From positions 27,069 to 91,068 of the forward strand of contig CAKOLD010000001.1 of assembly GCA_934096015.1 (NCBI GenBank): a stretch of 64,000 bases of DNA. Direction: 5' to 3'. Shown piece by piece: positions 15,776-47,616 of this stretch. The stretch is from an uncultured Bacilli bacterium. Its GTDB lineage: Bacteria; Bacillota_I; Bacilli_A; RF39; UBA660. Under the pieces are notes generated by a model that worked only from the letters and a program-made list of their open reading frames with translations, did no database searches and had not been told where the DNA came from. Within the stretch, counting starts at the first letter, position 1. Every line of letters begins with the position of its first letter. The position numbers and the translations under genes are program-made.

Positions 15776-16921
15776 TTGCAAAACATAAAATGTAAAGAAG
15801 GGAGTAAATCATTGAATAATTGTGATATAAGAAAAAATCCATCATGTTGTAATAATTTTCCTAATCCTCAAATAGGACCTACGGGACCTACAGGGCCTTT
15901 TGGACCAACAGGTCCTCAAGGTATTCAAGGCATTCAAGGTATTCCAGGAGAAACTGGACCTACGGGACCTCAAGGTATTCAAGGAATCCAGGGTATTCAA
16001 GGTATTCCGGGAGCTGTTGGAGCAACAGGACCTACGGGACCAACGGGACCTCAAGGAACTGCTGGAACTCAAGGAGTTACTGGTCCGACTGGACCTCAGG
16101 GAGAAACAGGACCTACGGGACCAACGGGACCTCAAGGAACTGCTGGAACTCAAGGAGCTACTGGTCCGACTGGACCTCAGGGAGAAACAGGACCAACGGG
16201 GCCAACAGGTCCTCAAGGAATAACCGGAACTCAAGGAGTCACCGGTCCGACTGGGCCTACGGGGCCAACGGGCCCAACAGGCCCTGCTGGAACTGCAGAT
16301 ACCATAAGTATAGGAAATGTAGAAACTGGAGACGCAGGAACTGCAGCACAAATAACAGACACTGGAAGTGGAACTAATCACATTTTAAATTTTGTGATTC
16401 CTAAAGGCACTACTGAAACTACACAACGTAATGCCTACCTGGTTACATTTAATGAAAACAATCAAAATCCAATAGATGTATTAAGCAACAACAAAATTCC
16501 ACTTACAAAAAAAGAAATAGATATAACAAATATAGTAACTCTAGACCCAACAGATAATACAATTCAATTTAATGTTCCGGGGTACTATCAAATCAATTTT
16601 ACTGCTTTTGCATATGCAAGTGATAATGGAAGAGATTTTGATCAAACAAAAGATTTTGTATCTATCGGATTAAGAACGGCTGGTACAGACGACATATATG
16701 TTGGTGCTAGTAAATGGACAAATTCAACAATAGCCACTGAAATAACGGGCCAAGGAATAATTTCAGTACCAGATATTTCTACTCCATTTGAATTAGTAAA
16801 CTTAAGCCCTAGTACTATTCACTTAACAAGTCCAGATATGAATTATATTAAATCAAGTTCATATTTTACAAACCCACTAGTAACTATTACAATTGAATAC
16901 TTAGGAAGACAAAATATATAA
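15776..16921 (+). CDS. BclA-like collagen-triple-helix repeat protein (exosporium/surface glycoprotein candidate)
   Basis: The N-terminal region is followed by about 150 residues of G-X-Y repeats dominated by GPT/GPQ/GIQ triplets. The C-terminal domain of about 200 aa is non-collagenous and beta-rich. The likely start is the TTG at 15812, downstream of a GAAGGGAG RBS. Confidence 0.7.
16028..16207 (+). repeat. tandem 90-nt direct duplication inside the collagen-like region (30-aa unit [16 protein letters not shown](V/A)[13 protein letters not shown])
   Basis: Two near-identical 90-nt units with 1-2 mismatches can be read directly at 16028-16117 and 16118-16207. Confidence 0.8.
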
Positions 16922-22645: not shown

Positions 22646-22900
22646 TCAATTATTTTTGTTGAATTTTACAGAAAATTTTACATAAGATTCTCCAAATACA
22701 AAACCTATTATTAACAAAATTTTATTATAAATATGAATATCAGCATAATTAAATTTATAAAAACAAAAAACAAATAATAAAGTAATTACCAAAAAATAAC
22801 CAATTTTTAAAAAAATTTTTTTTCTTCTCAGAAGACGATATATTATTCCGCAAACAAGGCCATAAAAAAATGAAAATAATAAATAAGCAAATTGCGTCAT
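22646..22900 (-). CDS. yabQ: YabQ-like small membrane protein (spore cortex biogenesis)
   Basis: 84 aa with about 3 TM helices. Positioned between the yabP and divIC homologs. Confidence 0.45.
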   Translation of the reverse strand: MTQFAYLLFSFFYGLVCGIIYRLLRRKKIFLKIGYFLVITLLFVFCFYKFNYADIHIYNKILLIIGFVFGESYVKFSVKFNKNN

Positions 22901-23577: not shown

Positions 23578-23787
23578 TTAAATATAATATAGTGAAATAT
23601 CTTTAATTAACACTTCTGAAAAAGAAAAACTTTTAGTTTCTACTCCATCAGATACAGTAAATATATTGGGATATATACCATTAATTATCCCAACAAAAAC
23701 ATCAGATTTATTTCGACAACATTTGGTTACTACTTTTACTCTTTTACCAAGATTTTCTTTCATATCATTTCTTATATCTTCTATCAT
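23578..23787 (-). CDS. veg: Veg protein (biofilm/stationary-phase small protein)
   Basis: IEDIRNDMKENLGKRVKVV...GRNKS..VGII.G.YPNIF.V resembles the Veg family. 69 aa. Confidence 0.75.
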   Translation of the reverse strand: MIEDIRNDMKENLGKRVKVVTKCCRNKSDVFVGIINGIYPNIFTVSDGVETKSFSFSEVLIKDISLYYI

Positions 23788-25978: not shown

Positions 25979-26761
25979 TCATAACCCAATTTCTATGTCA
26001 AAAATTTCCTTAACATTTTTATTAGTAATTCTTGCTATTTCATCTAAAGAAACGTCAAATAAATTCGCTAAAAATAAAGCAATTATTTTTATGTTTTTTG
26101 GACTATTTTGAGAACCACGATAAGGAACTGGTGCTAAAAAAGGTGAATCAGTTTCTAACACCAAGTGTTCTAAACCTACTTTCTTTATAACATCTTTAAG
26201 ATTACAGTTTTTAAAAGTTATTACTCCATTAATTCCAAGTTTATAACCCATTTTTACGTACAACATAGCTGTTTCGTAACTGCCATTAAAACAATGAATA
26301 ACTCCTTTAAGATTATATTTTTTTAATATATTTATAGTATCCTGTGTTGCTTCTCTAGAATGTATTACCACAGGATAATTATATTTTTGAGCCAAGTCTA
26401 ATTGATACTCAAATAACTTTATTTGTTCTTTTTTATTATTTTTATCATGATAATAATCTAAACCAATTTCACCTATAGCAATTATTTTACTAGTACTTAT
26501 ATTTTTAATAATGTTGTCTAAAACACTATAATCTTCAAAAACATTATCAGGATGAATTCCAAGACACCCATATATATTTTCATAAGTTTCTGATAATTTT
26601 AAAACTTCTCCAATAGAACTTATATTATCTGATGCAACAAAAAATTTATTAACATCATTTTTAAAAGCTTCAAACAAAACCGGTTCTAAATTATTATAAT
26701 ATTCATTATATAGATGACAATGAGTATCAATAAATTTATAATTCATACTATTCATTTTCAA
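25979..26761 (-). CDS. tatD: TatD-family metal-dependent DNase/hydrolase
   Basis: FIDTHCHLY...GEIGLDY...VIHSR... are TatD motifs. Immediately downstream of metG, as with B. subtilis yabD. Confidence 0.85.
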   Translation of the reverse strand: MKMNSMNYKFIDTHCHLYNEYYNNLEPVLFEAFKNDVNKFFVASDNISSIGEVLKLSETYENIYGCLGIHPDNVFEDYSVLDNIIKNISTSKIIAIGEIGLDYYHDKNNKKEQIKLFEYQLDLAQKYNYPVVIHSREATQDTINILKKYNLKGVIHCFNGSYETAMLYVKMGYKLGINGVITFKNCNLKDVIKKVGLEHLVLETDSPFLAPVPYRGSQNSPKNIKIIALFLANLFDVSLDEIARITNKNVKEIFDIEIGL

Positions 26762-27080
26762 TTCTCTGAAATAAAATTTCTGGCTTTTTCAAAAGTGTAC
26801 CTGATTTATAATTACCAAATTCTTTTGCACTATCGTATGTTTTTAAATTACAATTTATTAAATCAAAAATTTTCTCAGCAGTATCTGGCAAAAAAGGTTG
26901 TAAATATACCGTACATATTCTAATTGATTCAATAAGATTGTACAATACAGTTTTTAATCTATCCGCCATATTTTCATCTTTTGCCAACAGCCAAGGAGTT
27001 GTTTCATCTATATATTTATTACAGCTTCTTAAGCAAAAAAATACTTCATCAATTGCTTCAGAAATTTTTAATTTATCCAT
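26748..27080 (-). CDS. metG: methionyl-tRNA synthetase, C-terminal anticodon-binding fragment (separated from the catalytic part by an in-frame TAA)
   Basis: SCNKYIDETTPWLLAKDEN aligns to the MetRS anticodon-binding helix bundle. It is in the same frame as 27126..28280. Confidence 0.65.
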   Translation of the reverse strand: MDKLKISEAIDEVFFCLRSCNKYIDETTPWLLAKDENMADRLKTVLYNLIESIRICTVYLQPFLPDTAEKIFDLINCNLKTYDSAKEFGNYKSGTLLKKPEILFQRIENE

Positions 27081-27125
27081 TTTGTTTTTAAAATGATTAG
27101 GTAACTCTAAAATTTTACATTTTAA

Positions 27126-28280
27126 TTATTCATCAATAGGTAAAGAAACATTTTTATTTTCTACAATCCCATCAAAATATTTATAACTCATTGAGATAGT
27201 TCTATTAACCAAATTTCCCAATATATTTGCTAAATCAGAATTATTTCTTTCTATTATCAAATCTTCTGTAATAACTCCATCATCTGCAAAAGGAATTTCA
27301 TGAAGTACAAAATATCTTATAGTATCTACCCCATATTTATTAACCAACTCATCAGCATACAAAATATTTCCTTTACTTTTGCTCATTTTGTCACCACCAG
27401 AAAGTAACCACGGATGTCCAAAAACTTGTTTAGGTAAAGGTAAATCCAAAGCCATTAAAATTATTGGCCAATAAATAGTATGAAATCTAATAATATCTTT
27501 ACCAATTAAATGTAAATCCGCAGGCCATAATTTTTTGAATTCATCAGTAATAGAATCAGTATCATATCCAATATTAGTAATATAATTAGTAAGCGCATCT
27601 AACCAAACATAGATAATATGTTTTTTATCAAAAGTTACTGGGATCCCCCATTTAAAAGAAGTTCTAGATACACATAAATCTTGCAAACCAGGTTTTAAAA
27701 AATTATTAATCATTTCGTTCTTTCTTGATTCTGGTTGTATAAATTCATTGTGATTTTCAATATATTCAATTAACCTGTCTTGATACTTTGATAATTTAAA
27801 AAAATAAGCTTCTTCACTCTTTTTACTTACATCACGTCCACAATCAGGGCATTTACCATTAATTAATTGAGTTTCTGTAAAAAATGATTCACAAGGAACA
27901 CAATACCATCCTTCATATTTTGATAAATAAATATCTCCTTGTTCATATAATTTATTAAATATTTTTTGAACTTTTTCTTCATGTTGTTTATCAGTAGTCC
28001 TAACAAAACGATTATAAGTTGTATTCATTAAATCCCAAATATTCTTAATTTCATCAGCAACTTTATCCACATATGTTTGTGGTGTTACACCAGCTTCTTT
28101 TGCTTTTAATTCAATTTTTTCTCCATGTTCATCAGTACCAGTCTGAAAATAAACGTCATATCCTTCTAATCTCTTATTTCTTGCTATAGCATCTGCCAAA
28201 ACTATTTCATATGTATTACCAATATGTGGTTTACTAGATGTATAAGCTATTGCAGTAGAAATATAATATTTTTCTTTCAT
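27126..28280 (-). CDS. metG: methionyl-tRNA synthetase, catalytic N-terminal portion (HIGH and KMSKS motifs)
   Basis: PHIGNTYEIVLADAIAR is the HIGH region. Zn knuckle CPDCG. KMSKSKGN. It ends with TAA at 27126-27128, 15 codons before the in-frame downstream fragment. Confidence 0.85.
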   Translation of the reverse strand: MKEKYYISTAIAYTSSKPHIGNTYEIVLADAIARNKRLEGYDVYFQTGTDEHGEKIELKAKEAGVTPQTYVDKVADEIKNIWDLMNTTYNRFVRTTDKQHEEKVQKIFNKLYEQGDIYLSKYEGWYCVPCESFFTETQLINGKCPDCGRDVSKKSEEAYFFKLSKYQDRLIEYIENHNEFIQPESRKNEMINNFLKPGLQDLCVSRTSFKWGIPVTFDKKHIIYVWLDALTNYITNIGYDTDSITDEFKKLWPADLHLIGKDIIRFHTIYWPIILMALDLPLPKQVFGHPWLLSGGDKMSKSKGNILYADELVNKYGVDTIRYFVLHEIPFADDGVITEDLIIERNNSDLANILGNLVNRTISMSYKYFDGIVENKNVSLPIDE

Positions 28281-28283
28281 TTA

Positions 28284-28530
28284 AATTTCTCCTTCCATAA
28301 TAAAAAACATGAACAAAAGGACGAAAAAATTCCGCGATACCACCTTTATTCATGTTTTAGCATGCTCTCAAATTTTTAACGCAATTAACGATTTAAACTC
28401 CAGAACCATGTTCATTGTTTTTTTATAATTCTCTTTCACCATTTAAGAACTCTCTAAATATAAAGCCACAATTACTCTTTCCTTCTTCGTCTAACAAGTG
28501 TATTCTAACATAATATTATTTTTTATACAA
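28284..28530 (-). promoter_or_regulatory. T-box riboswitch leader (Met specifier) upstream of metG
   Basis: Minus-strand T-box sequence AAAGGUGGUAUCGCGGAA (plus 28330-28348). Intrinsic terminator ACAUGAAUAAAGG...CCUUUUGUUCAUGU plus U-run overlaps the antiterminator. AG-box GAAAGAGUA. Candidate specifier AUG-A in CAAUGAACAUGG. Confidence 0.7.
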
Positions 28531-35015: not shown

Positions 35016-35204
35016 TTACAATAAAAACACATATATCATTATTACAGAAATTATTCCTGGAAATCCTAATATAGAACTCACAGATAATGAAAACAAATTA
35101 ATTGGTATATGAATATTTAAAAGCGTTAATACAAGACTAATTGCATATAATGAACAAAATGCAAAAATCAATTTTTTTAAAACTACTTTAAACAAACTAA
35201 TCAT
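35016..35204 (-). CDS. bofA: BofA-like pro-sigma-K processing inhibitor (small 2-TM membrane protein)
   Basis: C-terminus HIPINLFSLSVSSILGFPGIISVIMI closely matches the B. subtilis BofA motif HVPINLVTTAISGILGIPGIAALVVI. Located just downstream of recR, as in B. subtilis. Confidence 0.6.
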   Translation of the reverse strand: MISLFKVVLKKLIFAFCSLYAISLVLTLLNIHIPINLFSLSVSSILGFPGIISVIMIYVFLL

Positions 35205-38604: not shown

Positions 38605-41055
38605 TTACTCTTCTTCTTGATCGCTATTATCAGTAGTTTCTTCGTAATGCGATACAACACTTATTGCTGATACACTTTGTGAATCTTTTAAATTTATTAA
38701 TTTAACACCTTGAGTTACTCTGCCAAGTTGAGATATTTGATCAATTGGCAAACGAATAACTATTCCTGAATCAGTAATAATCATTAAATCCTGATCATCA
38801 TCTACAATCTTGAATGCAATTAAATTACCATTCTTTTCAGTAATACTTAAAGCCTTAACACCTTTACTTCCGCGTTTAGTCTTTCTATATTCTGATAATA
38901 CTGTTTTTTTACCATATCCATTTTTTGTAACAATTAAAATGTTATTAGAATCATCTGCTACATCTAATCCTATACATAAAGATGAATCTAAATTAATTCC
39001 TTTAACTCCAGAAGCTGTTCTTCCCATAACACGAATTTCATCTTCGTTAAATATTACCATTCTTCCTTCACTAGAAGCTAAAATAATGTTATTATCACCA
39101 GTCGTTTTTCTAACACCAATTAATTCATCATTATCTTTCAACGAAATTGCTATTTTTCCTGAAGTTCTTATATTATCAAAATCTTCTATTCTTGTTTTCT
39201 TTACCAAACCTCGCTTCGTTGCAAATAGTAAATATTTATAAGAATCATCATTATTTGTTAATTTTACCATAGAATTGATAGTCTCATCTTTTTCTATTTG
39301 TAATAAATTGATTATAGGTAATCCTTTTGATTGTCTAGAATATTCAGGGACTTCATATCCTTTCAATCTATATACTTTACCCTTATTAGTAAAGAACAAT
39401 AAGTAATCATGTGTTGATAAGTTTATCATTTGTTCAGCAAAATCTTCATCATTGGTTGACATTCCCTTTACACCGACTCCACCTCTATTTTGCGATTTAA
39501 ATGTATCAACAGTTGTTCTTTTTATATATCCTTTATTTGTTAGAACAATCATAACGCTTTCTTCAGGAATCAAAGATTCATCTTCAATATAATCAATTGC
39601 TGTCATATCAATCTCTGTTTTTCTATCATCTCCAAATTTGTCTTTAATTTCTAACATTTCTTGTTTAATTATTGCTAAAACCTTATTATCATCACTTAAA
39701 ATACCTCTTAAACGATCAATTTCTTTTAATAAAGCTTCTAATTCTTCCTCAATTTTAGCTCTTTCCAAACCAGTTAAACGCCTTAGTTTTAACTCTAATA
39801 TTGCATTACATTGAATATCATCTAGATTGAAACGTTCCATTAATTTAGTTTTAGCATCAACATCTGCTTCAGCTTCCCTAATAATACTAATAACCTCATC
39901 TAAGTTATCTAATGCGATTTTATATCCATTCAAAACGTGGACTCTATTTTCAGCTTTATTAAGTTCAAACTTTGTCCTTCTGATAATTACGCTTTTTTGA
40001 TAATCAATATATTTAGCAATGATATCTTTTAATCCTAAAGTCTTTGGTTGCCCATCATCAAGCATTAATAAATTAATACCATAACTTGTTTGTAACTGAG
40101 TATGTTTATATAAATTATTTAAAACAACATTGGCATTAGCTTCTCTTTTTAAAGTAATTACTACTTTAACACCATTTTTTTGATTAGACTCATCATGTAA
40201 ATCAGCAATACCATCTATTTGTTTTTCACGTACTAACTCACCAATACGTTCAATAAACATTTTTTTATTAACTTGATAAGGAATTTCTCTTACAATTAAT
40301 CTATTTTTCCCATTATGTTCTTCAACATCAACCTTTCCTCTAATTGTAATTGAACCTTTACCAGTTTCATATGCTTTCTTAATTCCTGAATTTCCTAAAA
40401 TTTTTGCACCTGTAGGAAAATCTGGACCTTTAATATATTGCATTAATCCTAATGTATCAATTTCCGGATTATCAATATACGCAACACAACCATCAATAAC
40501 CTCTTCTAGATTATGAGGAGGAATATTTGTAGCCATACCCACAGCGATTCCCATAGTTCCGTTTACTAAAATATTAGGAAATTTACAAGGCAAAACAACA
40601 GGTTCTTCTCTAACATTATCAAAATTAGGTCTAAAATCAACAGTATCTTTATTAATATCTCTTAAAAGTTCTAAAGAAATTTTAGATAATCTTGCTTCTG
40701 TATAACGATATGCCGCTGCTGAGTCACCATCTATTGAACCAAAATTACCATGTCCATCTATCAAAACATATCTATAACTAAAATCCTGCGCCATTCTAAC
40801 CATAGCATCATAAACCGAAGAATCTCCATGTGGATGATATTTACCTAAAACGGCTCCGACAGTAGTTGCACTTTTTCTGAAAGGTTTATCAGGTGTTAAA
40901 CCATCCTCATACATGGTATAAAGTATTCTTCTATGAACTGGTTTTAAGCCATCTCGTAAATCAGGTAATGCTCTAGCTACAATTACACTCATCGAATAAT
41001 ACAAAAAAGAATTTTCTATTTCATCTACAATATTTTTCTGTCTTAATTTATCCAT
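38605..41055 (-). CDS. gyrA: DNA gyrase subunit A
   Basis: [26 protein letters not shown] ... YHPHGD. 816 aa. Confidence 0.97.
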
Positions 41056-41064
41056 AAAACCCTC

Positions 41065-42975
41065 CTATATATCCAAATCATCTGCATAAACTGCATTTTC
41101 TTCAATAAATTTCTTTCTTGGTTCTACATCTTCACCCATTAATATTTCAAAAGCTTTATCCGCTGCTATAGCATCCTCAATGGTTATTTGAACTAAAGTT
41201 CTATGCTCAATATTCATCGTAGTGTCACATAACTCTTCTGGGTTCATTTCTCCTAACCCTTTGTTTCTACTTACTTCTACCTTTGTAGTTTCTGGTAAAG
41301 AAGCTAAATATTCGTCTCGTTCTTCATCTGTTAAAACATATTTAGTAGTCTTTCCATGTTTAATATTATACAAAGGAGGTTGTGCAGCATATACATAACC
41401 ACCTTCAACAATAGGTTTAAAAAATCTATAAAATAATGTTAAAAGTAAAGTTCTAATATGTCCACCATCGACATCGGCATCGGTCATGATTATAATTTTA
41501 TGATATCTTAATTTAGTAATATCAAACTCATCACCTATACCAGTTCCAAAAGCAGTAATCATACTCCTAATTTCTGCATTTGCCAAAGCTCTATCTAAAC
41601 GAGCCTTTTCAACATTTAATATTTTTCCTCTTAAAGGCAGAATAGCTTGAGTTTTAGGATCTCTACCACCTTTTGCAGATCCACCAGCTGAATCACCCTC
41701 GACTATAAAAAGTTCAGATATACTTGCATCTTTACTAGAACAGTCAGTTAATTTTCCCCAAGTATTTGGTAAATCTAATCCACCTTTTCTACGAGTTAAT
41801 TCACGAATTTTTTTTGCAGCTACCCTTGCTCTAGATGCTGTCATACATTTTTCAATAATAACCCTTGCTGCATCAGGATTTTCCATTAAATATCTCTCAA
41901 ATCCTTTAGAAAAAACATCTGAAGCTATCTTTTTTACTTCACTATTACCTAATTTTGTTTTAGTTTGACCTTCAAATTGAGGATTAGGATGCTTACAAGA
42001 AATTATCATCGTTAAACCTTCTCTTGTATCTTCTCCTGTTAAATTATCATCATTATCTTTTAAAAATTTATTTGTTCTTGCATAATTATTAATAATTCTA
42101 GTTAATGCCTGTTTTACACCATCTTCGTGCGTTCCACCTTCTGTAGTATGAATATTATTTGTAAAAGAATAAATGTTGGGATTATAAGAATCATTATATT
42201 GCATTGCAACTTCTATTAAAATATCATTTTCAGTTCCTTCAACAAATACTATGTCATCATGAAGTGGTTTCTTATCTTTATTAAGCATTTGAACATATTC
42301 AATAATACCACCATTATAATGGAAAATATCCTTCTTTTCATCATCTCTCAAATCAATAAGAGTAATCCTTATTCCTTTATTCAAAAAAGCCATTTCTTGC
42401 AATCTTTTTGCTAAAATTGAATAACTATATATAGTTGTTTCAAAAATTTCAGGATCAGCTTTAAAACTAACAGTAGTTCCTGTTCTATCAGGATCACATT
42501 CACCAATAACCTTCAAACTTTCAACAGGTTTTCCACCATTTTCAAACCTTTGAAAAAATACTTTTCCTTCCCTATATACCTTTACTTCCAACCAATCACT
42601 AAGTGCGTTAACAACGCTGGCTCCAACTCCGTGTAATCCACCACTAACTTTGTAGCCTCCGCCACCAAATTTTCCTCCAGCATGTAAAACAGTAAAAATT
42701 GTTTCAATTGTTGAAAGGCCAGTTTTCTGATTCATACCTGTTGGCATTCCTCTACCGTCATCTTTTACTGTAATAACGTTATTTTTACCAATTTCAACTT
42801 CAATATCATCACAATAACCAGCTAAAGCTTCATCAACTGCATTATCAACAATTTCCCAAACCAAATGATGTAATCCCATTTCATTTGTATTTCCTATGTA
42901 CATACCAGGTCTTTTTCTTACTGCTTCTAAGCCCTCCAAAACCTGTATGGCATTATCAGAATAATTATCTTTCAT
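41065..42975 (-). CDS. gyrB: DNA gyrase subunit B
   Basis: [16 protein letters not shown]...[16 protein letters not shown] is the GHKL ATPase signature. Toprim region [10 protein letters not shown]. Confidence 0.97.
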
Positions 42976-44060
42976 ATTTTTTCCTCCACTATACCATTAT
43001 CAACAATAAATACTTTACTATCTCTAACTATTTTTCTTTTAACTTTACTTAATTCTGTAGTCGTTATAAACGTCTGAACATCATCACTTATATAACTTAA
43101 AATATTATTTATTTTTTCTCTATCTAATTCACTAAATAAATCATCCAAAATAAGTATAGGATAATTACCTCTTATATTTTTAAACATTTCTAATTCCGCC
43201 AATTTAAAAGCAATTATAGCATTTTTTTGTTCTCCTTCACTACCATAATCTTTTAAATTAGTATCATCTTTAAAAAATATAAAATCATCATGGTGAACTC
43301 CAAAATGAGTTTTACCAAAATTAATATCTTTTTCTTCATATTTGATATATTTTTCCTTTATTTGTTCCCTACTCAGATCATAATCACTTACATATTTTAC
43401 AAATAACGAATCAGATTTACTTATTTTAAAATATATATCTTTTATTAAACAATTAATATCATTTATAAATTTCTTTCTAAATTCAAATATTTTGATTCCA
43501 TAATCTATAATATTATTAGTTAAAACTTCTAAATATTGTTTTGAAGCATAACCATTATACATTAATGTTTTCAAATAAGAATTACGTTGCTTTACTAACT
43601 TATTATAATTGTTTAACAAGCACAAATATTCATTGTCAAGTTGAGATAATTCCATATTTATTAGTTTTCTTCTAGTACTAGGAGTATCTTTTATTAACTT
43701 TAAATCATCAATACTAAAAAGTATTACATTAATTTTAGAAACATATTCAGATAGTTTTTTTACTCTATTATTATTAATATTTACTCTTTTATCGTCATTT
43801 GATATCACAATTTTATAATTATCAATAAATGTTGATTTTATATCAGCATCAACTTTCAAAAAATCGCAATCTTTTTTAATTAATATACCATCTGTTTGGC
43901 CTCTAAAAGATTTAGTAAAAGCTAAAACAAATAAAGCTTCCACTATATTTGTTTTACCCATCCCATTTTTTCCTATAATTATGTTTTTTTTAGGTGAAAA
44001 ATCTAAGTTCAATTTGTCATAATTTCTAAAATTTACTAAATTCAAATTATTAACTTGCAT
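42972..44060 (-). CDS. recF: DNA replication and repair protein RecF
   Basis: [18 protein letters not shown] is Walker A. Signature region DDLFSELD. Canonical gyrB-recF position. Confidence 0.9.
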
Positions 44061-44163
44061 CTAAAACCATATTTTCACCCCAAAATTAAATTTTTAGTAT
44101 TTTTACATACTCCTATACCCGCTATAATTATAGCACAAATTAGACTAACAAAAAAGAGAAAAC

Positions 44164-44625
44164 TCATTTTTCTCCTCTTCTTTTTCTTAAAACATATTCC
44201 AATCTATTAGCTTTTAATATTTGATTATTTAAAACATTGTAACTTAAAGAAAATTCCAAACTTTCTTCATTTAAAAACTGTACAATACTTTTATTTTGGT
44301 CTTTATCAAAATAATATTTATCTATATTATTCAAACTTATCCAAGCACACTGTTTTAAACGAGGAGAAGTTGTTGGAAAAAAGACAATAGGATTATTTTC
44401 CTCTACTATTATGGGAGCTTTATAACTAATTCCAATTAAAGAATCTGTTCCTTTTATTCTTCCATTCATAGAACTTCCATAATATTTACAATTAAAATCC
44501 ATTATCTTATTTGGTTTACTATCAACCAAAAAGCAATCATCCTCTTCATATACTAAAGACTTTTTTTCTCCACATGGAATTATAGCCAATGTTTTTTTTG
44601 AAATAGAATAATTTTTCATATTCAC
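44164..44625 (-). CDS. comK: ComK-family protein (competence transcription factor homolog)
   Basis: LAIIPCGEKKSLVYEEDDCFLVDSKPNKIMDFNCKYYGSSMNGRIKGTDSLIGISYKAPIIVEENNPIVFFPTTSPRLKQCAWISLNNI aligns along its length with B. subtilis ComK (AVLPEEIDGK..CSKIIEKDCVFYV...SCRFFGSSYAGRKAGTYEVTKISHKPPIMVDPSNQIFLFPTLSSTRPQCGWISHVHV). Confidence 0.7.
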   Translation of the reverse strand: MNMKNYSISKKTLAIIPCGEKKSLVYEEDDCFLVDSKPNKIMDFNCKYYGSSMNGRIKGTDSLIGISYKAPIIVEENNPIVFFPTTSPRLKQCAWISLNNIDKYYFDKDQNKSIVQFLNEESLEFSLSYNVLNNQILKANRLEYVLRKRRGEK

Positions 44626-44716
44626 CCCCTAACCCATAATTCTTATAACACTATAGAGATGTCCATAAATGTCATAATTTGTCATAAAAAAAGAAAAATA
44701 CATTTTTTGCATTTTT

Positions 44717-45835
44717 CTAATAAGTTTTAATAGGCAGAATTAATTGAATTAGAGTTTCATCACTTAATGATTTTAATATAATTGGACTACTATCATTATT
44801 TAAAAGAATCAAAAGTTCTTCTTCATTAAAAGTTCTTAAAGCTTCCATCATATATTTAGCACTAAAAGAAATAGCCATCTCATTTTCTGTATTTTTTGTA
44901 GCTTTAACTTGATCTTCTACTTTACCAATTTCAGACGAATAAGAACTAATGAAAAGCATATCTTTTTTTGTTTCCATTCTAACTATATTTTTATCTTTAC
45001 TTTGTGTTAATAACGCTGCTCTATCAATTGAAGAATAATAATCATTTAAATTAGTATTTATAATCATATCAAATTCATTTGGAATTAAATTATTAACATT
45101 TGGATAAGTTCCACTTAAAAGATTTGTTTGAAAAATCAAATTTTTATACTTAAATAAAACTTTATTACTAAATAAATGAACTTCTAAACTATCTTCTTCT
45201 GTTAAAATTTTATCTAATTCAGTAATATTTTTTCCTGGAATTACAATATCAACAGTTTCTGGATAATCATTTTCAAGAACAATTGTTTTTTTTGCTAAAC
45301 GATATGAGTCTGTTGCTACACATTCCATAACATTTCCATTAATCTTTATATTAATTCCTGTTAAAAGAGGTCTAGATTCTTGCATAGATACAGCAAAAAT
45401 AGTTTGCTTAATCATTTTTTTAATAACTTCACTATCAATTACAATTGGAGTTTTAGCATCTTCTAAAATAATTTGTGGATAATCCTCACTATTTAAACAA
45501 TTTAAATTATATTGACTTGTTTCTGTATAAATTCTAATTTTTAATCCATCTATAACTTCAATATTAATAGCATCACTAGGCATTTTCCTAATAATATCAA
45601 TAATGTATTTACTTTGAATAATTATAGTACCTGTTTGCTCTATATTTATTATATCTTCCTTTTTTATAAAAGTTTTTATAGTTAAATCACTATCACTAGC
45701 TAGTAAGTATAAACCTTCATCTGTTAATTGAAACATTATTCCATTCAAAATAGGTATAATATTTTTTGGACTAATTGCTTTTACTACGTTACTTAAATTT
45801 TCTAATAAAATATTTTTATCAATTGTTAATTTCAT
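44717..45835 (-). CDS. dnaN: DNA polymerase III beta sliding clamp
   Basis: 372 aa in the dnaA-dnaN operon position. The three-domain clamp pattern begins MKLTIDKNILLENLSNVVKAI. Confidence 0.9.
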   Translation of the reverse strand: MKLTIDKNILLENLSNVVKAISPKNIIPILNGIMFQLTDEGLYLLASDSDLTIKTFIKKEDIINIEQTGTIIIQSKYIIDIIRKMPSDAINIEVIDGLKIRIYTETSQYNLNCLNSEDYPQIILEDAKTPIVIDSEVIKKMIKQTIFAVSMQESRPLLTGINIKINGNVMECVATDSYRLAKKTIVLENDYPETVDIVIPGKNITELDKILTEEDSLEVHLFSNKVLFKYKNLIFQTNLLSGTYPNVNNLIPNEFDMIINTNLNDYYSSIDRAALLTQSKDKNIVRMETKKDMLFISSYSSEIGKVEDQVKATKNTENEMAISFSAKYMMEALRTFNEEELLILLNNDSSPIILKSLSDETLIQLILPIKTY

Positions 45836-45957
45836 TTTTATTCCTTCTTTCTTATATAAGTATTATCTTTATTATTAGCGTGTAAAATGTTGAAAAATGT
45901 ATTAATTACCTAAAACAAAAGTAAAAGTGTTTGTTAATAAATATTTAATTATCCACA

Positions 45958-47316
45958 TTATCCAATTTTTTCTTTAATTTGTTTAATCTGTTCATTCAAT
46001 TCTTCATTAGTTTTTAATTCTTCTGTTACCTTTTCTATAGCATGTAGAACGGTTGAATGATCTCTATTTCCAAACTCTAATCCGATCCTAGAAACTGTTT
46101 CTTCAGTAGTCATTCTGCAAATATACATTGCGATTTGTCTAGCATTATTAATATCCGCAGTTCTTTTTTTACTTTTTAAATTATCAACAGTTAAATTAAA
46201 ATATTCTGCAACTCCCTTTTGTATCTTAATTATATTATTAGTTCCATAATAGGATTTTCCTAAATAATCTTTTAAAGCTTCAGTTGCAAATTCTAAATTT
46301 ATGCATTGTGGAGACATTATTGCCGCATAAGCATATAATCTTGTTATTGCACCTTCTAAGTGTCTAACATCACTTTCACAATTATTCGCAATATATTCAA
46401 TAACTTCATTTTGAACTAATTTTGCTACTTCGTGCCCTGCCATCTTATCCCGTAATATTTTACATCTTAATTCAAAATCTGGTGGAAATATATTGACCGT
46501 TAAGCCCCATCTAAATCTCGTTCGTAGTCTATCTTCAAGCAATTTTAAATCATCAGGAGATCTATCACTACTAATAATAATTTGTTTATTAGAGTCATAT
46601 AAAGTATTAAATGTGTGAAAAAATTCTTGCTGTGTTTTTTCAGCTCCACCTAAAAATTGAATATCATCAATTATTAAAACATCTATATTTCTGTATTTTT
46701 CTTTAAAATGATCAACAATATCATAATTATCAGTATTTTTTTTGTTAATTCCAATAAAATCAGAAATAAATTCTTCACTTGTAACATATAAAACATTTAA
46801 ATCTGAATGGTCAACAATATAATTTCCTACAGCGTGCATTAAATGAGTTTTCCCCAGCCCACTCTTTCCGTGGATAAAAAGAGGATTGTATATTTTTCCA
46901 GGCTGTTCAGCAACCGCAACAGCTGCTGTTTGTGCAAATCTATTAGAATCCCCTATTACAAAATTTTCAAATTTATATTTAGGATTTAAGTTAGAATTAA
47001 AATTTCTTTCTTTATTTGAAATATCATCTAAAGATCTTGTTACTTGCTTTTTTTCATCTATTTCCTCATGAATTAAAAACTCCAAATCATAAGTATTTCC
47101 AGTCAAACTAGTAATAATCTCTTCAATTAAGTCATAATATGTAGTAGACAAAAATGTTTTATGAAATGACATTGGAACTTCGATAACTAATTTATCATCT
47201 TCCATAGAATACAATTTAGTATCTTTAAACCAAGTATCATAAGAAACACTCATCAATTTGTTCTTTATAACCTTTAAAAAATTATTCCAAAGTGTATCTT
47301 TGTCCAAAAAAACCAC
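45958..47316 (-). CDS. dnaA: chromosomal replication initiator protein DnaA
   Basis: NPLFIHGKSGLGKTHLMHAVGN is the AAA+ Walker A. The C-terminal DnaA-box binding domain includes VDNLKSKKRTADINNARQIAMYICR. Confidence 0.97.
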   Translation of the reverse strand: MVFLDKDTLWNNFLKVIKNKLMSVSYDTWFKDTKLYSMEDDKLVIEVPMSFHKTFLSTTYYDLIEEIITSLTGNTYDLEFLIHEEIDEKKQVTRSLDDISNKERNFNSNLNPKYKFENFVIGDSNRFAQTAAVAVAEQPGKIYNPLFIHGKSGLGKTHLMHAVGNYIVDHSDLNVLYVTSEEFISDFIGINKKNTDNYDIVDHFKEKYRNIDVLIIDDIQFLGGAEKTQQEFFHTFNTLYDSNKQIIISSDRSPDDLKLLEDRLRTRFRWGLTVNIFPPDFELRCKILRDKMAGHEVAKLVQNEVIEYIANNCESDVRHLEGAITRLYAYAAIMSPQCINLEFATEALKDYLGKSYYGTNNIIKIQKGVAEYFNLTVDNLKSKKRTADINNARQIAMYICRMTTEETVSRIGLEFGNRDHSTVLHAIEKVTEELKTNEELNEQIKQIKEKIG

Positions 47317-47616
47317 CCCGCATTCATGACACCTTTTTCTACAGATAATTTTAAACTACTTTTTCACAAAATAAAAGACAAAATTTTTAAAATTTGCAAA
47401 ATCCACAAAATATCAACATAATTTTCAACACACAACATCACTAAATAAGCTAAAAAACAAACTTTTCAACATTTTCCACAAATTGAAATTCACATCAATA
47501 TTAAAATTTCCACAATTAACGTTTAAAAATAAATTAAAATAAAAATCAAAATAAAATTGACATCTAAAGAGTAATGTTGTAGAATAAAGTAGCTAAAAAG
47601 AGGTGGAGGTGTCAAA
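47317..47616 (+). promoter_or_regulatory. dnaA-rpmH intergenic region: oriC-type cluster of co-oriented DnaA-box-like 9-mers (TTNTCCACA variants) plus dnaA/rpmH promoters
   Basis: AAATCCACA at 47399-47407, TTTTCCACA at 47472-47480, ATTTCCACA at 47506-47514 and TTTTTCACA at about 47360. The background is very AT-rich. A perfect TTATCCACA also sits at 45949-45957 in the dnaA-dnaN spacer. Confidence 0.5.

Follow-up and report, generated by a model that had tools for sequence, protein, structure and literature searches.

A ComK-family gene in the dnaN-recF slot at the replication origin of uncultured gut Bacilli and its candidate Spo0A-type promoter boxes

What is a gene of the ComK family, whose Bacillus member is the master regulator of competence, doing between dnaN and recF beside a chromosomal replication origin? 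The question is raised by 64,000 nucleotides of DNA from an uncultured Bacilli bacterium (contig CAKOLD010000001.1, positions 27,069 to 91,068; this whole stretch is called the window below), in which an open reading frame (ORF) on the minus strand occupies exactly this slot. The ORF is a real, full-length ComK-family gene, and in an order-level lineage of uncultured gut Bacilli comK has become fixed between dnaN and recF. The protein belongs to a known family and is ordinary within it; what is new is its context together with its promoter architecture. No description of comK at dnaN-recF, or of competence in these organisms, was found in the literature, and the conserved comK context is apparently undescribed. 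The gene and its translation start are:

44164 to 44619, minus strand: comK coding sequence, 151 amino acids from the ATG at 44619, stop codon TGA at 44164 to 44166
44623 to 44631, minus strand: comK ribosome-binding site TAGGGGGTG, 3 nt before the ATG, containing the GTG chosen by the ORF finder

The mechanically listed ORF (44164 to 44625, minus strand, 153 amino acids) begins two codons earlier with a GTG at 44625, which falls within the Shine-Dalgarno sequence GGGGGTG, and the ATG at 44619 is the likely start of comK. A 99%-identical database protein (P0001) has 151 residues, the same length as the ATG form, and an exact-sequence look-up of the 153-residue form found no database entry, the database form being the one of 151 residues that starts with the ATG. 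The Shine-Dalgarno sequence is conserved at the same position as GGAGGTG in 36 and as GGGGGTG in 22 of 77 related spacers, with less than one occurrence expected.

The preliminary description of the window had aligned the ORF with ComK along its whole length and had proposed a hidden Markov model (HMM) search against the Pfam family ComK (PF06338). Both point to the same family: the HMM search gave a significant full-length match (E=3.4e-40; 137.7 bits at a cut-off of 22.3; profile positions 2 to 151 of 152), and BLASTP against a Bacillus subtilis-group protein named "competence transcription factor ComK" by NCBI (P0121) gave 33% identity over residues 1 to 148 (E=5e-28). No family besides ComK was found for the ORF in Pfam at E <= 10, so that there is no S4 or LytTR match, and a search of NCBIfam returned no matching model; the Pfam match is decisive. 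An alignment of 5 Bacillus-type and 7 origin-linked sequences contains 22 invariant columns, including C..GS..GR, K.PI, T.S and C.W.S, and PF06338 is present in every one of 150 homologues of about 150 amino acids. A profile built from the origin-linked clade retrieved 1806 clusters (50% identity) at E <= 0.001, and proteins of about 190 amino acids, the length of Bacillus ComK, join the same continuous ranking from approximately E=1e-39. NCBI pipelines already label these proteins from metagenome-assembled genomes (MAGs) as ComK.

The surroundings of comK are those of an origin of replication, with dnaA, dnaN, comK, recF, gyrB and gyrA following one another on the minus strand:

47317 to 47616, no strand: oriC cluster of DnaA boxes in the dnaA-rpmH spacer, boxes of the types TGTGGAAAT, TGTGGAAAA and TGTGGATTT
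45958 to 47316, minus strand: dnaA, ORF with Bac_DnaA domains on its orthologues
45949 to 45957: perfect DnaA box TGTGGATAA in the dnaA-dnaN spacer
44717 to 45835, minus strand: dnaN (sliding clamp), the upstream neighbour of comK, ORF with Pfam DNA_pol3_beta domains on its orthologues
42972 to 44060, minus strand: recF, the downstream neighbour of comK, ORF with SMC_N/AAA_23 domains on its orthologues
41065 to 42975, minus strand: gyrB, ORF
38605 to 41055, minus strand: gyrA, ORF

Beyond dnaA, the plus strand carries rpmH, rnpA, yidC, jag, mnmE, mnmG, rsmG and parB. Because the cumulative GC (guanine-cytosine) skew reaches its minimum at about 47 to 48 kb and DnaA boxes cluster there, this is a true chromosomal origin. 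DnaA boxes of the TGTGGA type are concentrated upstream of dnaA and in the dnaA-dnaN spacer, and DnaA-box-like motifs occur in these two spacers at 4.5 to 6.7 per kb across related loci. The distance from comK to the dnaA-dnaN spacer is about 1.2 kb, and that to the main DnaA-box cluster is about 2.7 kb. This gene order confirms the earlier placement of comK in the dnaN-recF slot on the strand of the replication genes. The spacers on either side of comK (97 and 103 bp) hold no ORF, and inspection of the window's small ORFs by eye, not by HMM, revealed no S4-domain or DUF370-like protein. We take the position of yaaB (remB) to be between recF and gyrB; these two genes overlap by 4 nt, and there is therefore no slot for it. 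The preliminary description was right that "yaaA (remB)" is absent but wrong to treat YaaA and RemB as one, since they are the products of two genes. YaaA is the S4-domain protein located between dnaN and recF (PMC7196914), and RemB is equated with YaaB in the passage of PMC8481266 that cites Winkelman 2009.

How widely this arrangement is kept was determined with one genome per species of the Genome Taxonomy Database (GTDB). A relative of the window protein was found in 266 species, and its placement was counted in the best 80 of these. In 73 of the 80 species representatives, comK has dnaN directly upstream and recF directly downstream; four more are cut by a contig end in a way consistent with dnaN-comK-recF, and the position is thus kept in 77 of 80. 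The three exceptions carry the homologue elsewhere (L064, 5001 to 5447; L089, 2401 to 2847; L087, 575 to 1024), either as a relocated orthologue or as a second copy: two of these genes lie between ligA, downstream of pcrA, and cca-dnaD-nth, and one lies beside a polysaccharide-deacetylase-like gene upstream of valS. The order dnaA-dnaN-ComK-recF-gyrB is also seen in all six metagenome homologues whose contigs were fetched, at identities from 74% down to 44%. All 80 genomes are MAGs of uncultured bacteria, for the most part from the guts of animals and humans, and are labelled Bacilli, Tenericutes, Mollicutes or Erysipelotrichaceae. The lineage probably corresponds to one or more orders of the RF39/RFN20/ML615J-28 type (PMC10868615), and, judged by these labels, the host still belongs to the class Bacilli.

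The length of the comK ORF is 147 to 162 amino acids in all 84 loci, its mean identity to the window protein (53%) lies between those of recF (49%) and dnaN (62%), and its identity correlates with that of DnaA and DnaN (rho 0.64 to 0.67). A narrow range of lengths, recF-like conservation and a divergence that tracks DnaA and DnaN indicate purifying selection and vertical inheritance with the origin block. An extra ORF between dnaN and comK exists in two species, one of 340 amino acids without an assigned function (L074, 3879 to 4901) and one of 100 amino acids with a repetitive sequence (L024, 3317 to 3619). A yaaA hidden in these long spacers was considered and rejected, as both ORFs are unrelated to yaaA.

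These data also dispose of the idea that what lies in this AT-rich spacer is a spurious ORF or a pseudogene in decay. The window has 26% G+C, a composition that yields many chance ORFs, and the neighbouring metS gene is interrupted by an in-frame TAA. Nonetheless, the match to a curated family, the strong Shine-Dalgarno sequence, the intact ORFs in all 84 loci, the relatives in 266 species and the confident fold of an AlphaFold2 model of the window protein (pLDDT 94) leave this reading a practically negligible probability, and we regard it as refuted by the conservation data.

In its form, the window protein differs from Bacillus ComK (192 amino acids), of which the first approximately 8 and the last approximately 35 residues are missing in the alignment. 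The model consists of a LytTR-like β-fold followed by a long C-terminal helix (residues 127 to 147), and in a fold comparison LytTR DNA-binding domains, such as those of ComE and AgrA, were the only strong matches among solved structures, at 9 to 14% identity. A sequence search of the Protein Data Bank (PDB) found no ComK structure. On the basis of this model, the protein is, with moderate confidence, a short-form DNA-binding transcription factor of the ComK family. It would differ from the LytTR domains of AgrA and ComE by the low identity, the missing Pfam LytTR match, the lack of a receiver domain and the additional C-terminal helix. As a side aspect, the model suggests that Bacillus ComK and pneumococcal ComE, both master competence regulators, may have a common DNA-binding fold. 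With the C-terminus, the FMLYPK degron for MecA/ClpCP is absent from the window protein and from all origin-linked homologues that were aligned. In the part of PMC8138137 that cites Prepiak and Dubnau 2007, FMLYPK... is given as the ComK signal for MecA targeting to ClpCP. The lack of this signal makes a Bacillus-type proteolytic control unlikely, and control is therefore probably transcriptional.

The two spacers flanking comK contain the following candidate signals for transcription:

44686 to 44718, minus strand: terminator-like hairpin AGAAAAATGCA-AAAAA-TGTATTTTTCT with a T6 run, located immediately behind the dnaN stop codon (dG -8.9 kcal/mol)
44642 to 44650, minus strand: extended -10-like element TGTTATAAG of comK, deduced from sequence, with no recognisable -35 element at 17 to 18 bp
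44150 to 44175, minus strand: terminator-like hairpin GGAGAAAA-ATGAG-TTTTCTCT with a T5 run, extending across the comK stop codon (dG -5.8 kcal/mol)
44127 to 44135, minus strand: putative promoter of recF-gyrB-gyrA, extended -10 element TGCTATAAT, conserved as TGnTATAAT
44075 to 44122, minus strand: conserved element below the recF promoter, GGTATAGGAGTA (44108 to 44119) within an inverted repeat or hairpin, with a U-rich stretch behind it

Between dnaA and recF, a standard scan returned no terminators, and promoters no more commonly than expected by chance. Its minimum of three G-C pairs does not suit a genome of this composition and is the reason why it missed the hairpin after dnaN. The scan was replaced by a custom one that accepts any stable hairpin followed by a T-run and includes intragenic control windows. 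By this measure, a hairpin with a T-run directly follows dnaN in 60 of 78 unique related loci and surrounds the comK stop codon in 30 of the 78, as compared to none in 160 control windows. Matches to TGnTATAA(G) with a score of at least 8 out of 10 are found at the same place in 62 of 77 unique related spacers; in most of them they lie 22 to 34 nt before the ATG, and their last base is mostly G instead of the consensus T. The comK promoter thus looks like a deliberately weak, activator-dependent one. Downstream of comK, TGnTATAAT is present in 75 of 76 unique comK-recF spacers, which indicates that recF-gyrBA has its own strong promoter.

The element below the recF promoter contains GTATAGG in 57 of 76 comK-recF spacers (0.6 expected), and its stem shows some compensatory changes, with one pair being AU in 15, CG in 5 and GC in 2 cases. 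Approximately 8 nt downstream of TGnTATAAT, the highly conserved GTATAGGAGTA lies inside the inverted repeat AATAGGTAT...ATACCTATT, which is followed by the U-rich tract. This element could be an operator in the DNA, a hairpin or attenuator in the 5' leader of recF-gyrBA, or a stabiliser whose loop, AGGAG, resembles a Shine-Dalgarno sequence. An Rfam search of both spacers flanking comK returned nothing credible.

Taken together, comK is probably a separate unit and not an internal gene of an operon. The earlier suggestion that comK is co-transcribed with dnaN and/or recF, in which case its level would follow that of the replication genes, is not favoured and appears very unlikely to us. It would fit the common strand, the short spacers and the negative outcome of the standard terminator scan, and read-through is plausible because the hairpins are A/T-rich and weak and 48 of the 78 loci have none after comK. 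It is opposed by the frequency of hairpins after dnaN relative to the controls and by the conserved promoter-like elements in both spacers. In addition, an operon would make little sense of a phased array of boxes that is confined to the dnaN-comK spacer:

44660 to 44687, minus strand: three direct repeats in exact 10-bp phase, read on the plus strand as TGTCCATAA (44660), TGTCATAA (44670) and TGTCATAA (44680)

In the window, the -10 hexamer follows these boxes at distances of 12, 22 and 32 bp. Their counterpart in related loci is TTCGACA, which besides T-runs and the ribosome-binding site is the most enriched 7-mer of the dnaN-comK spacers (36 of 77, 0.8 expected). It often occurs in two to four tandem copies, and a box nearly always ends 11, 21 or 31 bp from the -10 hexamer. 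The density of TTCGACA in the dnaN-comK spacer is 4.2 per kb, with 42 copies in one orientation and one in the other, and does not exceed 0.26 per kb upstream of dnaA, in other spacers and in coding sequence. The DnaA-box-like motif TGTGGAWWW shows the opposite distribution, being concentrated at oriC. Two other explanations for the boxes were therefore rejected: they are not DnaA-box-like sites, as TTCGACA is restricted to the comK spacer and oriC uses the TGTGGA type, and TCGACA is not a -35 element, as its spacings are 11, 21 and 31 bp and never 17. Independently of the boxes, a perfect DnaA box TGTGGATAA was noticed just after the dnaN terminator and upstream of the comK boxes in three loci (L019, L020 and L075), and the density of DnaA-box-like motifs is 1.1 per kb in the dnaN-comK spacer and 0.39 per kb in coding sequence.

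The complement of TTCGACA, TGTCGAA, is the consensus of the Spo0A box (PMC5295017). At the B. subtilis comK promoter (PcomK), phosphorylated Spo0A (Spo0A~P) binds five boxes and first activates and then represses transcription (PMC3297582). By analogy, the boxes upstream of the origin-linked comK are most likely bound by Spo0A~P; Spo0A is favoured because the boxes of the relatives match its consensus exactly and because direct gating by Spo0A~P is known for PcomK. The main alternative binder is the ComK homologue itself, which would then autoregulate its gene through the TTCGACA/TGTC boxes. LytTR-type regulators bind direct repeats, typically about 20 to 21 bp apart, and the homologue comes into question for this reason: its model has a LytTR-like fold, and the boxes are direct repeats in one orientation, in which pairs 20 bp apart (distances 31 and 11) are common. 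The variant boxes of the window could, in addition, reflect co-evolution with its own protein, and canonical ComK is known to activate its own promoter (PMC3297582). We consider self-binding unlikely, though, since the commonest box matches the Spo0A consensus exactly and does so in its flank too (TTCGACAAA, complementary to TTTGTCGAA; PMC5295017), and since a single box shared across proteins that are only 44 to 60% identical better fits a highly conserved regulator such as Spo0A. Furthermore, canonical ComK recognises the K-box, A4-N5-T4, which is a different motif.

These observations can be combined into a mechanism, to which we give a somewhat better than even chance: the origin-linked comK would be gated by Spo0A, with a possible sensitivity to origin dosage, and its product would be the transcription factor of a regulon for competence or DNA repair. 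comK would form a separately regulated unit wedged between the dnaA-dnaN and recF-gyrBA operons, delimited by the hairpin after dnaN, then the boxes with the weak extended -10 element (TGnTATAAG, no -35), the hairpin at the comK stop codon and finally the strong recF promoter. Spo0A~P would bind the phased boxes and thereby gate comK transcription, so that the degron-less ComK is controlled at the level of transcription rather than by MecA/ClpCP proteolysis, and the gene dosage near the origin may add to this control. The sporulation genes yabP, yabG, spoVG and a SpoVT-like gene in the window are counted in favour of this mechanism. In the last and least secure step, ComK would switch on a competence or DNA-repair regulon, resembling a "K-state", elsewhere in the genome. 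A bolder version, in which a degron-less ComK hard-wired beside oriC reads both Spo0A~P and origin copy number and either drives competence or repair or acts on recF-gyrBA or oriC, is distinctly unlikely.

Several points weigh against Spo0A-gated control of a competence or repair regulon. Both box variants of the window, TGTCATAA and TGTCCATAA, have 2 mismatches in 7 positions to TGTCGAA, which equals the tolerance that is also applied to B. subtilis boxes and is still weaker evidence than an exact match, and the boxes are weaker still in L001, the nearest relative of the window. The weakness of the hairpins and the presence of the one at comK in only 30 of the 78 loci allow read-through from dnaN or into recF. 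The dnaA-dnaN-(yaaA)-recF-gyrBA block is syntenic in Bacillota whatever the function of its genes, and conserved position alone is therefore no proof of a functional tie to replication. According to Susanna et al. 2006, the C-terminus of B. subtilis ComK is reportedly dispensable for DNA binding and needed for transcription activation and probably for tetramerisation; a form without it may thus behave differently or adopt another oligomeric mode. Finally, no K-box pair was found in the 64 kb of the window (spacings of 8 and 18, at most one mismatch), and late competence genes (comG, comE, comF, dprA and ssbB) are absent from it.

K-boxes are also missing from comK's own promoter. An enrichment of A4N5T4 in the spacers was rejected as evidence for K-boxes, because it mostly reflects the terminator hairpin and T-run after dnaN. 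A competence pathway outside the Bacillaceae/Listeria/Staphylococcus group, as the preliminary description had proposed, is possible but does not follow from these data; ComK was formerly described as exclusive to the Bacillales (PMC1524751).

The main rival to the Spo0A-gated regulon is a repurposed ComK fold with a local role in replication or repair and not in DNA uptake. Such a protein could, for example, regulate the promoters of recF-gyrBA or dnaA-dnaN or bind near oriC, and could be switched on by Spo0A like the replication inhibitor SirA of B. subtilis. The strict and deep synteny with replication genes agrees with this idea, as do the two of three moved copies that again lie among DNA-metabolism genes between ligA and cca-dnaD-nth, the absence of the canonical C-terminal region, the lack of K-boxes and com genes in the window, and the conserved inverted repeat at the recF promoter, which could be an operator. 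On the other hand, conservation with canonical ComK along the whole core suggests the same mode of DNA binding, neither TTCGACA nor a K-box-like motif is found in the comK-recF spacer, and no link between the protein and DnaA emerged. Synteny is likewise kept for yaaA, which has no known role in replication (PMC7196914). For these reasons, repurposing is rather unlikely in our view, and the Spo0A-gated regulon remains the preferred explanation.

Comparison with known systems helps to delineate what is shared and what is particular. B. subtilis ComK belongs to the same family, with 33% identity over the whole core and invariant residues in common, and is likewise a small stand-alone protein without another domain. 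It differs in having 192 amino acids and a degron, compared to 151 amino acids without a degron here, and in the K-boxes of its own promoter, which are missing here. The window gene is at oriC in the dnaN-recF slot, whereas B. subtilis comK presumably lies far from the origin. The promoter has several boxes in both cases, bound by Spo0A~P in B. subtilis (PMC3297582) and putatively of the Spo0A type here, those of the window itself being the variants with two mismatches. In Bacillus, Staphylococcus and Streptococcus, the gene usually found between dnaN and recF is that of YaaA (RlbA). YaaA agrees with the window ComK in slot, strand and small size, but is a ribosome-associated, RNA-binding S4 protein (PMC7196914) that is unrelated in sequence to the window ComK.

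In Streptococcus pneumoniae, comCDE, comAB and comX provide a further case of competence-type regulator genes that are kept near oriC across a lineage, and the fold of ComE is the LytTR fold that the model of the window ComK resembles. The part of PMC5636887 that cites Slager et al. 2014 describes these origin-proximal competence genes as being under dosage control by replication stress. By analogy, the dosage of the window comK could be coupled to stalled replication. The pneumococcal system differs in that its proteins belong to another family, and no two-component or peptide-signal genes are located near the window comK. If the protein had a local role in replication, SirA of B. subtilis, a DnaA inhibitor induced by Spo0A~P, would offer a speculative parallel as a small protein under Spo0A boxes with a tie to replication initiation (PMC5295017). 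The window protein clearly belongs to the ComK family, however, and a sequence relationship to SirA is not expected.

ComK thus appears here as a conserved and vertically inherited gene of reduced-genome gut Bacilli that were formerly binned as Tenericutes or Mollicutes, a lineage without cultured representatives and without genetics. If ComK drives DNA uptake, abundant gut bacteria would be naturally transformable, and its position at oriC together with Spo0A-type boxes would tie replication status and the sporulation phosphorelay to competence in a way that can be tested directly. If it has no role in DNA uptake, it would be a clean example of a master regulator that was repurposed after genome reduction. 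Should a degron-less ComK indeed be hard-wired beside oriC to read Spo0A~P and copy number, it would represent a second, independent origin-coupled control of competence, derived from ComK and not from ComCDE, in organisms never shown to be transformable. The protein itself is not new; what its context provides for uncultured gut Bacilli is a hypothesis that can be tested.

Some further features of the window deserve mention. Besides its sporulation genes, it carries genes for peptidoglycan synthesis (FemAB and a class A penicillin-binding protein, PBP) and, at 15776 to 16921 on the plus strand, a gene for a protein with collagen triple-helix repeats (Pfam Collagen, E=1.3e-22) that is reminiscent of BclA-type exosporium proteins. 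The interrupted gene mentioned above, metS (methionyl-tRNA synthetase; 26748 to 28280, minus strand), contains a single in-frame TAA at 27126 to 27128 (...PIDE*LKCK...), which could be a sequencing or assembly error, the mark of a pseudogene or that of a truly split gene; the gene is preceded by a T-box leader (28314 to 28496). Genetic code 4, to which this stop codon might point, was rejected, because the stop is a TAA and TGA is in use as a stop codon, ending 9 genes. Over most of the window, the gene order parallels the origin region of B. subtilis, and small ORFs on the minus strand occupy the B. subtilis positions of bofA (after recR; 35016 to 35204), veg (23578 to 23787) and yabQ (22646 to 22900).

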